64,000 nt of DNA from an uncultured Candidatus Saccharibacteria bacterium (GCA_964543385.1 CAZIYE010000001.1:127143-191142); one strand, 5' to 3'. Shown: positions 26,422 through 29,298, numbered from the stretch's first letter. Translations and numbers: made by a program. The notes: a model not told the origin generated them from the letters alone.

Positions 26422-29298
26422 TTAGACTCTGCTGAGCGTTGTAAATGGCATGTTAATTAAATCTGTGCGAGTTGGGGTCATGGTACTACCTCCGCTGGTT
26501 AGATTAGTCAATGTAAATACCCCTGGATCAGTAGCGGTTGGAGGTGATGAAGTACTTGGTACAAAACTATCTATTCTGCAGAAAGCACCAAGCATGGGTA
26601 TGAATATTATAGGATTACCAGCTGCAGCTGATCCCAAAAGATCAACTTTAGACGTTTTCTCGGCCAATTTTGGACCCGAGACGCCACCAGCCAAAACCTC
26701 ATTAAATCTATAATTATTAGTACCGTAATTATAGTATACCTCTGCCTCAAACACGGGATTATCTCCCTCAAGCTTTACGCTAGAAACATGGCAAGTTAGA
26801 GTAGTTCCAGTAGGCGCATTCTTTAGATCGGGACTTAATACTAGAGGCAAATCAGTTCTACCACCGACAGCAGATGGGAGCCTAAAAACCAACTTACCGC
26901 CAGAGTTTACTAATGTCCCGCCAGCAAAATCAAGCCCCTCAAAAGCCGTTTTAAGGCCGTCCAAATCAACGGCCGGTGTCTCAGGAGTTGTCGTTGCGGT
27001 CCCTCTCCCTTCCTTCAATACTTTGATTGGATTAGGAGTATTTAATAATCCATCAGGCGTAACGAGATCTCTGAATCGAACCCTTGGGTGAGTTACTGTA
27101 CCACCGCCAGCAAGGATTGCATCTTCAGCAGGAGTATTTCTAAATGATAGGAATTCATTTGGAGCCGGACCAACTTCGATAATATCAAATCTGCCATCTG
27201 TCCTTCGTCCAGGAGTAGCAGCGGGATACGCCCTCGCTGCAGCAGCAAGAAAAGCCGGGGTAAATTCTACTCTACCGCCTCGTAATCTCTGACGGCTTAG
27301 CTCTGTGTTGGTCTCTCTTTGCTCTCTTCTTTCTCTTTCTCTTTCTCTAGCGGTAGCTAAAGCTTCAGGTGTATTATAGGCGAGAACAGCAATTGCTGGA
27401 TTTAGTTCAGTCTGATTATTATTTGAAATCTGTTGCAGAGTAATATTTGGATGAGGATCACGTCCAGCCGTTCTTTCTGTTCTATCCCAATCATTGTCCT
27501 CAAATCTCAATCTACCGTCTGCTTCAATACCGCTAATATCATATTGTCTTGACCCTCGAGCAGCAGGTACTAATCCTGCTATTGCAGCTGGTGCGGTTGC
27601 CAAAATTGTAACTCTGTTGCCAATAAGCCGTGATCGAAGACTTTCCTGTCTTGTCCTAAGCTGTTCTCTGTCAAAGCCTGTGACTTCTTTACGACTCTCG
27701 TCAACAGCACCTCTCATAACCTTGCTAACATCGCTATCAATGTTTCTCTGAGCGTTTGTCCTACCACGCCACCAGAGTGCACCCACACCAGCACCAGCTA
27801 GTGCAATCGGTCCGCTGAACTTATCAATCAATGCCATAGCGGCGTTTGGAGAACCATTGAATTCTATCAATTGTTCAGCAACCGATGGATGAGACAAAAT
27901 AAAGTGTTGGATTTCTGGAGGAAGCGCGATGAAAGCATCTTTGTGTTCTACTAAATAATTTCCGAATTCTTCACCGTTTGGAAGAGTCACGCTCATATCT
28001 ATATTATGTGCATTAGCAAACTGTTCAAGATTTTGCGCTGGATCAGCACCCTGCAAAATACTATCGACTTGAGTTATTTCACCTGTATGCAATCCCATAA
28101 TAGATGCATGTTCTCCTTGATCAGCAAGACCCTGCAATTTTGACAAGTGATCAACAAGTGCTCTATTACTTTCTGACAACGAATCGTAGCTGACATCACC
28201 AGACATAACCTGATTATAAGTGTCCAGATTAGCTGCATGGTCTGCATTTTCTCCAGCGATTTGAGCAGATTGCGAAAGAGCATCAGCCTTTGCCTGAAGC
28301 AAAGCATCTGGACTAGCCGCAGCTTGAGCACCTCCGCCAAAATGATCTTTGATCCAATCAGCAGCTCCCTGCAGCCCGCCGTGATTGAACATCCAGCCGA
28401 GCACACCACCGATAGTACTACCAAGTGCAAAGCCTTTTATTGTAGAAATCATTACCTTATTGCGATTTAAATCCCGTACAGTTTCATAAGACTTGCGGTA
28501 TTTTTCACCCGCTGCTCTCGAAACCAGATTGAAATCATCATTGCTCTCACCCATCATTTGGTCGATAGCGGCCAAAGCTGGATTCATTGTCTCACCAGCA
28601 TCTCTGGCTTCATTTCTTCTCTGTCCTAAAAGCTGTTTTATCTGTCGATATTTAAGTACCATTTCAAAACGTGTAGCATCATTTCCGCGGACTCTATTAT
28701 CCATAATAGCATTGCGCATAATACCTAGAGCCGTCATCAAGTGGCCACTGTCTAATCTGCTAAGCTCAGGATTTGAAGCACGTAATATTCCAAGCTCTGA
28801 CATCCATACTGCAGCACCCTCTGTTTGTTCTTTTGCTCTTGTGTAACCGCTAATTGCGCCCATGCCACCACCGATAAGTATATCTGTGACTGGTCCGCCT
28901 AAACCAAGGGAACCATTTACTACTGATCGGACAGCCATACCAGCACCAGCCATGCCCAAAGTCCTGCCTATACCGCTCTCTCTAAAACGATTCCATATGC
29001 CACGAAAAAATCCTCCGATTCCTCTACGATCTCGAAGTATTTGGTGAAAAAGTTGTGAATCAGCGTCATCGCTCTCAAGGATCTGTCGACAAGCATCTGG
29101 ATTGCGTTCTATTTCAGCAAGTGATCTAGAATACTCTCGTTCGCTTGCAGCTCTCTCTCTGGCAAAGCCAGCTGAGGAATCAAAATCATCACCGTCGACA
29201 ACGTGCTGTGCTTCCTCATTTACATCCGCCCGATACTCTGCCCTTGGCCCTGGTCCGATAGCCATAGTACCCTCCGAAATAGTACTAAATTTATACAA
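26422..29298 (-). CDS. large (958 aa) hypothetical protein with glycine-zipper hydrophobic segments
   Basis: Hydrophobic segments such as GMAGAGMAVRSV, LGLGGPVTDILIGGGMGAISG, GFALGSTIGGVLGWMF and ALAGAGVGALWW. It contains an RERERERREQRE run. GC is about 50%, moderately elevated. It is the first gene of the operon-like array that ends with the ATPases. Confidence 0.45.
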   Translation of the reverse strand: MYKFSTISEGTMAIGPGPRAEYRADVNEEAQHVVDGDDFDSSAGFARERAASEREYSRSLAEIERNPDACRQILESDDADSQLFHQILRDRRGIGGFFRGIWNRFRESGIGRTLGMAGAGMAVRSVVNGSLGLGGPVTDILIGGGMGAISGYTRAKEQTEGAAVWMSELGILRASNPELSRLDSGHLMTALGIMRNAIMDNRVRGNDATRFEMVLKYRQIKQLLGQRRNEARDAGETMNPALAAIDQMMGESNDDFNLVSRAAGEKYRKSYETVRDLNRNKVMISTIKGFALGSTIGGVLGWMFNHGGLQGAADWIKDHFGGGAQAAASPDALLQAKADALSQSAQIAGENADHAANLDTYNQVMSGDVSYDSLSESNRALVDHLSKLQGLADQGEHASIMGLHTGEITQVDSILQGADPAQNLEQFANAHNIDMSVTLPNGEEFGNYLVEHKDAFIALPPEIQHFILSHPSVAEQLIEFNGSPNAAMALIDKFSGPIALAGAGVGALWWRGRTNAQRNIDSDVSKVMRGAVDESRKEVTGFDREQLRTRQESLRSRLIGNRVTILATAPAAIAGLVPAARGSRQYDISGIEADGRLRFEDNDWDRTERTAGRDPHPNITLQQISNNNQTELNPAIAVLAYNTPEALATARERERERREQRETNTELSRQRLRGGRVEFTPAFLAAAARAYPAATPGRRTDGRFDIIEVGPAPNEFLSFRNTPAEDAILAGGGTVTHPRVRFRDLVTPDGLLNTPNPIKVLKEGRGTATTTPETPAVDLDGLKTAFEGLDFAGGTLVNSGGKLVFRLPSAVGGRTDLPLVLSPDLKNAPTGTTLTCHVSSVKLEGDNPVFEAEVYYNYGTNNYRFNEVLAGGVSGPKLAEKTSKVDLLGSAAAGNPIIFIPMLGAFCRIDSFVPSTSSPPTATDPGVFTLTNLTSGGSTMTPTRTDLINMPFTTLSRV

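Follow-up and report, generated by a model that had tools for sequence, protein, structure and literature searches.

A glycine-zipper protein of an orphan family, encoded with two coupling-protein-like ATPases, as a candidate membrane subunit in a Patescibacteria lineage

Patescibacteria (the candidate phyla radiation, CPR) account for much of the diversity of bacteria; they are thought to have a lifestyle attached to other cells, and the molecular interface is little known. In the TraG proteins of F/R100 and SXT/R391 a variable C-terminus carries strain specificity, i.e. entry exclusion and mating-pair stabilisation. For the Patescibacteria, the passages on type IV secretion system (T4SS) repertoires in a 2025 survey (PMC12102498) report 5,713 VirD4-like coupling proteins in 2,918 genomes, about two each; these type IV coupling proteins (T4CPs) are mostly encoded away from virB4 and possibly exapted according to the authors, and the T4SS itself is described as MPF-FATA-derived with VirB4, TrsD, PrgI/VirB3, VirB6 and VirB2 arrays. 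Here we report on the gene for a large glycine-zipper protein of 947 amino acids (aa) in a stretch of 64,000 nucleotides (nt) from an uncultured Candidatus Saccharibacteria bacterium (GCA_964543385.1 CAZIYE010000001.1:127143-191142; the whole stretch is referred to as the window). Genes for two T4CP-like ATPases lie downstream, and we rate the protein as a putative T4CP-associated membrane component from an orphan family with an unmatched fold.

The locus is like the Patescibacteria T4SS in that it belongs to the same phylum, is chromosomal and lacks a relaxase, and its ATPases fit the description of stray VirD4 proteins in the survey's passages. It differs in that the 947-aa protein and the neighbouring DUF5663, acidic and sigma-70 region 4 (sigma-r4)/HARE-HTH proteins match none of the components catalogued there, and the cluster is not described in those passages.

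There is a functional likeness to F-type TraG and extended VirB6 proteins, which are large (~900-1500 aa), encoded with T4SS-type ATPases and composed of a membrane-embedded conserved N-terminus and a variable C-terminus. The 947-aa protein also combines a conserved N-terminus with a strain-specific C-terminus (78-98% vs 26-59% identity), which is a functional resemblance only. It differs in several respects: neither the protein nor its 39 family members match the TraG_N, TrbL/VirB6 or PrgH profiles; where five or more strongly hydrophobic helices would be expected, it has three to four weak glycine-zipper segments; both partner ATPases are T4CP-like, with no VirB4, VirB3, VirB6, VirB8 or relaxase family matched in family scans of the window; and its variable module is apparently on the cytoplasmic side. 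As to the large extracytoplasmic loop of the VirB6 type, what is seen here is a large Lys/Arg-poor loop, putatively outside.

Our tentative suggestion, to which we give a little less than an even chance, is that the protein is a resident membrane subunit (anchor or conduit) of a new apparatus driven by the T4CP-like ATPases. This reading is ranked first because the protein is the only multi-segment hydrophobic protein in the cluster, because its most conserved parts are Lys/Arg-rich and would face the cytoplasm like the ATPase domains, and because its zipper helices are of the kind that packs into homo-oligomers in membranes.

The gene cluster and its two ATPases

The gene is an uninterrupted open reading frame (ORF) on the minus strand, 26422-29298, as given in a preliminary description made from the sequence alone. 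The ORF finder placed the start at a TTG (29298), which gives the 958 aa stated there. The actual start is almost certainly the ATG at 29265, eleven codons inside, since the 947-aa product is 100% identical to a database protein (on a 671-kb contig) and all homologues start at the equivalent Met. A GGAGGG ribosome-binding site (29275-29270) is located 4 nt upstream of this ATG, the homologue N-termini all read MA(I/V/G/W)G, and that of the protein itself reads MAIGPGPRAEYRADVNEE... There is no N-terminal hydrophobic signal peptide in the sequence, in agreement with the earlier account. The features of the unit are (window coordinates):

26422..29265, minus strand: coding region for the 947 aa, from the ATG (29265-29263) to the stop codon (26424-26422); translation probably does not begin at the TTG (29298)
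29328..29336, minus strand: putative promoter, extended -10 element TGtTATAAT, read by eye in the AT-rich spacer after the terminators
29399..29469, minus strand: two intrinsic-terminator-like hairpins with T-tracts, stems of 12 and 8 base pairs (singly 29469-29441 and 29418-29399)
29511..30221, minus strand: upstream neighbour of 236 aa, a separate transcription unit; the protein has a signal peptide, a coiled coil, a linker rich in Pro/Thr and a transmembrane helix at the C-terminus
26055..26402, minus strand: next gene, 115-aa acidic helical DUF5663 protein, adjoining the large protein in all relatives
24986..26041, minus strand: acidic protein of 351 aa that belongs to no family and lacks hydrophobic segments; the slot holds 363-398 aa and 631 aa proteins in relatives
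22412..24970, minus strand: 852-aa ATPase with N-terminal transmembrane helix, DUF8128 and T4CP-type P-loop domain
20744..22298, minus strand: 170-aa protein of unknown family, then a 342-aa protein, both conserved in the cluster
17291..20614, minus strand: second ATPase, 1107-aa ORF, with N-terminal transmembrane helix, DUF8128, TrwB_AAD_bind and TraG-D_C

The terminator pair ends the upstream 236-aa gene and isolates the gene for the 947-aa protein as the first of a new unit. A weak -35 element (TTGTAT, 29356-29351) is present 17 nt upstream of the extended -10, and because of its weakness the promoter consensus scan did not list the latter. The three genes downstream follow at gaps of 13-19 nt, with no terminator between the large-protein gene and that for the first ATPase. 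Together, the upstream terminators, the promoter-like element and the short downstream gaps indicate that the gene heads a transcription unit, and the earlier placement at the head of an operon-like array is borne out.

Both ATPases exceed the Pfam cut-offs for T4CP families and carry an N-terminal anchor, a single transmembrane helix each (Kyte-Doolittle 2.4-2.6). Specifically, the 852-aa ATPase matches T4SS-DNA_transf with 27.5 bits (cut-off 20.1), and the second, which is called as 1078 aa in a contig identical to the window, matches TrwB_AAD_bind with 33.4 bits (cut-off 20.5) and TraG-D_C with 22.4 (cut-off 22). Both are below the NCBIfam equivalog cut-offs, with weak TraD, TrwB and CedD similarities. 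The closest solved relatives of the second ATPase are TrwB and DotL, and the first has no sequence match in the PDB. A defence system was considered and rejected; PADLOC gave only generic HerA/mad8 P-loop similarity for the ATPases. The jumbo Bacillus phage G (L014, JN638751.1) has an adjacent ATPase pair at 6348-10490, of which gp155 is VirB4-like (P-loop_TraG/AAA_10) and gp156 is 25% identical to the window's 852-aa ATPase over 88% of its length. Homologues are found in 46 phage records, nearly all from Bacillus and related hosts and including SPO1-like phages.

The gene order in relatives is large protein, DUF5663 protein, acidic protein and DUF8128 ATPase, continued, where the contig reaches, by the ~170-aa protein, the sigma-r4/HARE-HTH protein and the second DUF8128 ATPase. 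This synteny was seen in contigs identical to the window and in relatives in which the large protein is 65-72% and 31-33% identical; the 33%-identity contig includes the distal ATPase, the short 31%-identity contig ends within the slot of the first downstream ATPase, and one 65%-identity contig ends just after the large protein. Thus the link to a putative translocation apparatus made in the preliminary description gains from a synteny with two T4CP-like ATPases that extends down to 31-33% identity. In relatives the cluster always has tgt/rplL on one side and DUF1290/secDF on the other.

The large-protein slot is occupied by proteins of 1269 and 1500 aa, with no detectable sequence similarity to the family, in lineages whose first ATPase is 60-63% identical. 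Their layout is similar, with a charged helical N-terminus, then weak Gly/Ala-rich hydrophobic segments and finally an extended charged tail that contains small beta domains, and the 1269-aa protein has a comparable Gly-zipper hairpin near aa 115-150. In one lineage the DUF5663 protein and the large protein are in inverted order. Over more than a hundred clusters the first ATPase retains 60-90% identity, and in the one genome pair permitting both comparisons it is 74% identical vs 33% for the large protein, which therefore evolves much faster than its motor. Within the unit only the large protein has several hydrophobic segments, with none in the 115-, 351-, 170-, 342-, 436- and 97-aa neighbours, and the nearby genes offer no alternative candidate for a membrane component of the ATPases.

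The 342-aa protein (20744-21772, minus strand) has sigma-70 region 4 at its N-terminus and HARE-HTH near its C-terminus, and lacks sigma region 2. In every relative examined its gene keeps this place between those for the two ATPases, and the protein may be a DNA-binding accessory of the cluster.

An orphan family with conserved glycine zippers

A word-seeded search of 5.8 billion proteins returned 7 clusters for the family, and an exhaustive profile search of 1.84 billion representatives gave 39 members of 600-1200 aa, none annotated, with an overall identity of 16-30% to the 947-aa protein. Repeating the homologue search with the 39-sequence alignment returned the same 7 proteins only, and a metagenome scan no contig beyond those already in the comparison set. 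Scans of the protein against Pfam, NCBIfam, PHROG and PADLOC gave no real match (the FCH match, 18.5 bits, is below its cut-off), nor did Pfam with all 39 members; among PDB sequences, neither the family profile nor the C-terminal 396 aa matched anything below E = 0.2. The family was absent from 50,697 phage genomes (tblastn) and from IMG/VR, and with hhalign no similarity was seen to the positional analogues in L010 and L011, to phage G gp155 or to the 170-aa neighbour. Literature on DUF5663, DUF8128 and Berkelbacteria with 'coupling protein' was searched and nothing was found.

The AlphaFold model computed from the 39 sequences has a mean predicted local distance difference test score (pLDDT) of 82.5 and a predicted template modelling score (pTM) of 0.51, and this confident model gave no significant fold match; a model from 7 sequences (pLDDT 47.8) was unusable and the Foldseek matches to it meaningless. 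Profile and fold searches found no assignment to a housekeeping family. Judged by these searches the family is an orphan, tiny and lineage-specific (Berkelbacteria-like Patescibacteria/CPR). The domain map of the protein is as follows (aa; window coordinates, all on the minus strand):

aa 1-102, 28960..29265: charged helical N-terminal region, 15% Lys+Arg, putatively cytoplasmic
aa 103-140, 28846..28959: zipper segment 1, two short helices, a probable membrane hairpin or re-entrant element
aa 141-270, 28456..28845: conserved helical domain, 16% Lys+Arg, putatively cytoplasmic
aa 271-293, 28387..28455: zipper segment 2, predicted transmembrane helix
aa 294-475, 27841..28386: all-helical, NIDL and Q..LSHPS motifs, 5 Lys/Arg in 182 residues, putative extracytoplasmic loop
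aa 476-499, 27769..27840: segment 3, predicted transmembrane helix returning to the cytoplasm
aa 500-550, 27616..27768: long Arg/Lys-rich helix, 23% Lys+Arg, putative cytoplasmic stalk or coiled coil
aa 551-760, 26986..27615: two related small beta domains (551-632 and 663-760) joined by helix 633-662
aa 761-947, 26425..26985: beta-rich hypervariable C-terminal domain

The N-terminal ~640 residues form the conserved core and the remainder is variable. Most conserved is aa 141-270, with an invariant W154, V192-R193-G194 and K205-Y206-R207. The two small beta domains constitute an internal repeat (z = 4.6), and the C-terminal beta-rich fold has only a weak OB/SH3-like resemblance. A catalytic His pair in the loop (H420/H459) was considered; these histidines near NIDL and Q..LSHPS are not invariant across the family, and hence no catalytic signature is seen.

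All four Gly-rich hydrophobic segments quoted in the preliminary description were located (aa 104-112, 120-140, 278-293 and 490-499 in the 947-aa numbering). Zipper 1 is a GxxxGxxxG (G132/G136/G140) and zipper 2 a GxxxGxxxGxxxG (G278/G282/G286/G290), their glycines are retained in 30-39 of the 39 family sequences, and AlphaFold helices pass through both (aa 125-149 and 257-294); the protein accordingly has a conserved (G/A/S)xxxGxxxG on a hydrophobic helix. The Gly/Ala-rich character of segment 3 (aa 476-499) is also conserved, with G493 present in 29/39; WWRGR follows the segment. The GxxxG count of the whole protein is not above that of composition-matched shuffles (p about 0.2). The zippers are genuine because their glycines are conserved across divergent members, not because of the motif count. 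Matches to the curated families Gly-zipper_Omp, YMGG and 2TM (one of 39 members each, E about 0.006-0.008) are noise.

The segments are weakly hydrophobic, with Kyte-Doolittle maxima of 1.3-1.5 compared to 2.3-2.6 for clear transmembrane helices in neighbouring genes. A further peak at aa 551-569 was rejected as a fifth transmembrane helix, being homologous to the non-hydrophobic aa 665-683 of the internal repeat and a confident strand plus loop in the AlphaFold model.

The distribution of charge is markedly uneven. Between zipper 2 and segment 3 (aa 294-475) Lys+Arg amount to 2.7% (5/182), the minimum of the whole protein (binomial P about 1e-4), vs 15% for the N-terminal aa 1-102, 16% for aa 141-270 and 23% for about aa 500-550 (498-550). 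All seven close members show 1-3% in this stretch and 11-23% in the flanks, and the medians for the 39 members are 5.5% and 16-18%, respectively. Moreover, basic residues border each segment (e.g. ...SGYTRAK, NRNK... and ...WWRGR). By the positive-inside rule a Lys/Arg-poor stretch is expected on the translocated side and its flanks in the cytoplasm; the depletion in aa 294-475 therefore argues for membrane insertion with that loop outside. Taken together, the protein is very probably membrane-inserted via its conserved glycine-zipper helices, and the earlier suggestion that the segments are of membrane type is supported by the conserved zippers and the positive-inside pattern.

The strain-variable C-terminal module and the chromosomal setting

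Close relatives are 78-86% identical over aa 1-632 and 26-31% over aa 761-947. In the sharpest case, P0003 vs P0004, identity falls from 98% (aa 1-632) through 72% (aa 633-760) to 59% (aa 761-947). For L012 vs L007 the DNA is 92-99% identical up to nt 1824 of the gene and 60-81% from there to the stop, but the gene that follows is again 93% identical over its first 150 nt. At residue ~640 synonymous divergence (dS), 0.1-0.35 up to there, jumps to 0.9 or saturates, and the ratio of nonsynonymous to synonymous divergence (dN/dS) is 0.0-0.12 in the N-terminal 640 aa, which indicates strong purifying selection, and 0.1-0.3 in the variable part. The drop and recovery in identity, together with the jump in dS at low dN/dS, thus suggest recombinational allele exchange and not simple positive selection. 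To judge from these alignments the C-terminal ~300 residues are a strain-variable module swapped by recombination, mainly on the basis of one close pair of metagenome-derived contigs and with a gradient in two further comparisons.

The junction between the conserved and the variable part is at about aa 610-640 and coincides with the helix 633-662 that bears the (RE)n run. The run itself, noted earlier and present as RERERERRE at aa 640-648 (codons 27322-27348), lies just downstream of the conserved body. Its DNA is a TCTCTT/TC microsatellite-like repeat (27312-27348) that is found in this strain only and is a gap in the homologues. In the closer subfamily the last strand loosely keeps an aromatic/hydrophobic-xx-F/L-x-R/Q-like motif despite the variability.

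The window, L013 and L007 differ in their C-terminal modules but have highly similar DUF5663 proteins. DUF5663 is therefore no immunity partner that co-varies with the module, and the idea that the two form a toxin/immunity pair was rejected for this reason. Silent C-terminal cassettes were looked for, and there are none in the window or in the relatives' loci. In L012 (13060-13345) the DUF5663 gene departs from its homologues after about residue 80 and continues as unrelated sequence to the contig end, with a 'GVTGHCKPAEV' duplication; this tail is probably an assembly chimera and not biology.

The GC content of the large-protein gene is 45.0% vs 38.7% for the whole window, lower than the roughly 50% given in the preliminary description, where this intermediate value hinted at a foreign origin. 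Its GC at third codon positions (GC3) is 0.305, the same as in nearby housekeeping genes including those for ribosomal proteins and tRNA synthetases (0.23-0.39). Gly, Ala, Arg and Pro make up 34% of the protein and the GC surplus is in codon positions 1 and 2; the raised GC is thus an amino-acid effect, and a foreign origin argued from GC is ruled out by the native GC3. The true compositional outlier, and the '60% GC island' of the earlier account, is the upstream 236-aa gene (GC 59.6%, GC3 0.67). Short genes with GC3 of 0.50-0.67 are scattered in the window, the genome norm being about 0.30; besides that at 29511-30221 (minus strand), high-GC3 genes are at 3047-3520, 4874-5683 and 7341-7787 on the plus strand and at 33809-34162 and 41376-43510 on the minus strand. 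In five relatives the upstream slot likewise holds a signal-peptide protein with GC3 of 0.47-0.79 (among them L013 4785-5480, L003 7179-9731, L009 469-1275 and L010 3655-4812), and high GC3 is therefore a conserved property of the slot, not the mark of a single recent transfer.

The window is part of a small, low-GC bacterial chromosome with rplK, rplA, rplJ, rplL, nusG, pth, prfA, tgt, cysS, ileS, trpS/tyrS, topA, recR, dprA, mfd, ftsW, secDF and a type IV pilin-like array, and the host is a CPR genome. The relatives are metagenome-assembled genomes which, by their depositors' own labels, are Candidatus Berkelbacteria, Patescibacteria group or, loosely, 'Saccharibacteria'. The native GC3, the rplL/tgt-secDF position and the purifying selection on the N-terminal part argue, therefore, for a resident, functional and vertically inherited gene.

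Elsewhere in the window, four type IV pilin-like genes with an N-terminal methylation motif are present on the minus strand (59377-59931, 60189-60743, 62525-63358 and 63382-63957), two of which encode 184 aa each; such an array is typical of CPR genomes. A 513-aa surface-like protein with DUF11/DUF7927/DUF7619 repeats is encoded at 39611-41152 (minus strand), beside two overlapping high-GC ORFs with TTG starts and no family (41376-43510, minus strand; 278 and 452 aa), and the 39611-43510 region may be another variable surface-protein locus.

Proposed role and alternatives

As a resident subunit, the protein would belong to a chromosomally encoded and vertically inherited apparatus powered by the two membrane-anchored VirD4/TrwB-type ATPases encoded downstream. 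Its charged N-terminus (aa 1-102) and helical domain (aa 141-270) would be cytoplasmic, with zipper segment 1 (aa 103-140) dipping into the membrane as a hairpin between them; zipper 2 (aa 271-293) would cross outward, the 182-residue helical domain (aa 294-475) would be exposed outside, and segment 3 (aa 476-499) would cross back, leaving the Arg-rich helix and the three small beta domains (aa 500-947) on the cytoplasmic side. The GxxxGxxxG faces would give tight helix-helix packing, most simply in a homo-oligomeric ring or channel, and the last ~300 residues could be an adaptor that confers specificity for a partner that varies, be it cargo, a host factor or a phage protein. Membrane insertion and topology are what we infer, as are oligomerisation, a physical coupling with the ATPases and the kind of cargo, DNA or protein. 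DNA is a candidate cargo in view of the HARE-HTH/sigma-r4 protein and because the ATPases have affinities to DNA translocases; protein is also possible. In its most specific form, the cluster would be a VirB4-independent CPR translocation system, in which DNA or protein, driven by the two T4CP-like ATPases, passes through a channel of glycine-zipper homo-oligomers and the recombining C-terminus sets partner or host specificity; taken whole, we regard this form as doubtful.

Several points weigh against a resident subunit. The hydrophobic segments are short as well as weak (14-23 residues; Kyte-Doolittle 1.3-1.5), and pLDDT is lowest in the zipper segments, being <50 at aa 97-123, 298-316 and 474-497. 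Neither in sequence nor in fold is the protein similar to VirB6, TrbL, PrgH, TraG or any channel. Polymorphic modules that recombine are found more typically in proteins that are exposed or delivered than in cytoplasmic domains. Finally, gene order can persist in streamlined genomes without functional coupling, and the putative physical link between the protein and the ATPases comes from synteny.

The preliminary description had left open whether the protein is a translocated effector or pore, or the structural channel of an apparatus, and we rank the resident subunit above the former. As cargo, the protein would act as a glycine-zipper pore-former or translocon that is exported with the aid of the T4CP-like ATPases and inserts into the membrane of the host bacterium, its variable C-terminus setting host or target specificity; we consider this unlikely. 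VacA and the MscS-type packing motif are examples of glycine zippers in channels and pores, where conserved GxxxGxxxG motifs on moderately hydrophobic helices, as seen here, drive homo-oligomeric packing. The zipper is also a hallmark of secreted membrane-disrupting effectors such as TelE, a type VII secretion system (T7SS) effector (PMC10434224). Weak hydrophobicity suits a protein that is soluble before insertion, the missing signal peptide a substrate that bypasses Sec, and the motif at the extreme C-terminus is conserved despite the hypervariable domain around it. Moreover, a conserved N-terminal body with a sharply bounded, recombining C-terminal module is shared with the polymorphic toxins (CdiA, Rhs, LXG) and keeps an exported protein under consideration.

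Unlike these toxins, however, the 947-aa protein has no toxin domain recognisable in Pfam, NCBIfam or PADLOC scans, nor does it have an adjacent immunity gene, orphan modules or a recognisable domain for delivery; it is present in single copy in the window and in the relatives' loci, and dN/dS in its variable part stays at 0.1-0.3. Glycine-zipper pore formers are compact and usually have an immunity partner or a known fold, whereas here the zippers are three separated elements in a conserved region of 640 residues, the Pfam Gly-zipper models match at noise level only, and proteins of 947-1500 aa with three or four membrane segments over 400 residues are unlike compact zipper toxins. The most conserved parts are Lys/Arg-rich and resemble the docking surfaces of a resident protein. 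The balance tips to a resident membrane subunit because of the charge pattern and because no immunity-like gene co-varies.

A membrane protein unrelated to the ATPases, with a role in, for example, envelope organisation, division or attachment, would owe the synteny to inherited gene order. The cluster lies among housekeeping genes, the protein has diverged far more rapidly than the ATPase where one genome pair permits the comparison, and its order with DUF5663 is inverted in one lineage, all of which would fit. We nevertheless find this quite improbable, given the short gaps with no terminator up to the first ATPase, an association that persists where the large protein has diverged beyond recognition, and the lack of another membrane candidate for the ATPases nearby.

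Still less credible is a soluble cytoplasmic scaffold in which the Gly/Ala stretches are flexible linkers or packing motifs of a helical bundle. The hydrophobicity is under the usual transmembrane threshold, the GxxxG count is at chance level, and the peak at aa 551-569, which was not among the four segments first quoted, proved to be part of a repeated beta domain. Linkers, however, would not keep a four-residue glycine periodicity across 39 divergent sequences, and a scaffold leaves unexplained the family-wide Lys/Arg depletion between zipper 2 and segment 3 as well as the basic residues that border each segment.

A phage tape-measure protein, a type mentioned in the preliminary description, or a prophage remnant is suggested by the size, Gly-rich hydrophobic segments and helical content, which resemble those of tape-measure proteins, and the neighbouring ATPases match a PHROG of unknown function and phage G gp156, but this is effectively refuted: the protein has no match in PHROG, the phage genomes or IMG/VR, it is not located in a tail module (there are no tail, head or terminase genes nearby, the neighbours being tgt, rplL/rplJ/rplA, secDF, the ATPases and sigma-r4), its codon usage is native and its chromosomal position is the same in distant relatives.

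With respect to the biology of the group, the orphan VirD4-like ATPases gain a conserved genetic context in one lineage and their only plausible membrane partner. If the apparatus is not real, a clean orphan family is still at hand, with glycine zippers and a charge asymmetry that give a testable topology. If it is real, it would be a new use of conjugation-type motors and a tractable target for host range or DNA/protein exchange in ultra-small bacteria, and a VirB4-independent system of this kind, with no sequence or fold kin among secretion components, would be a molecular determinant of the epibiotic lifestyle.

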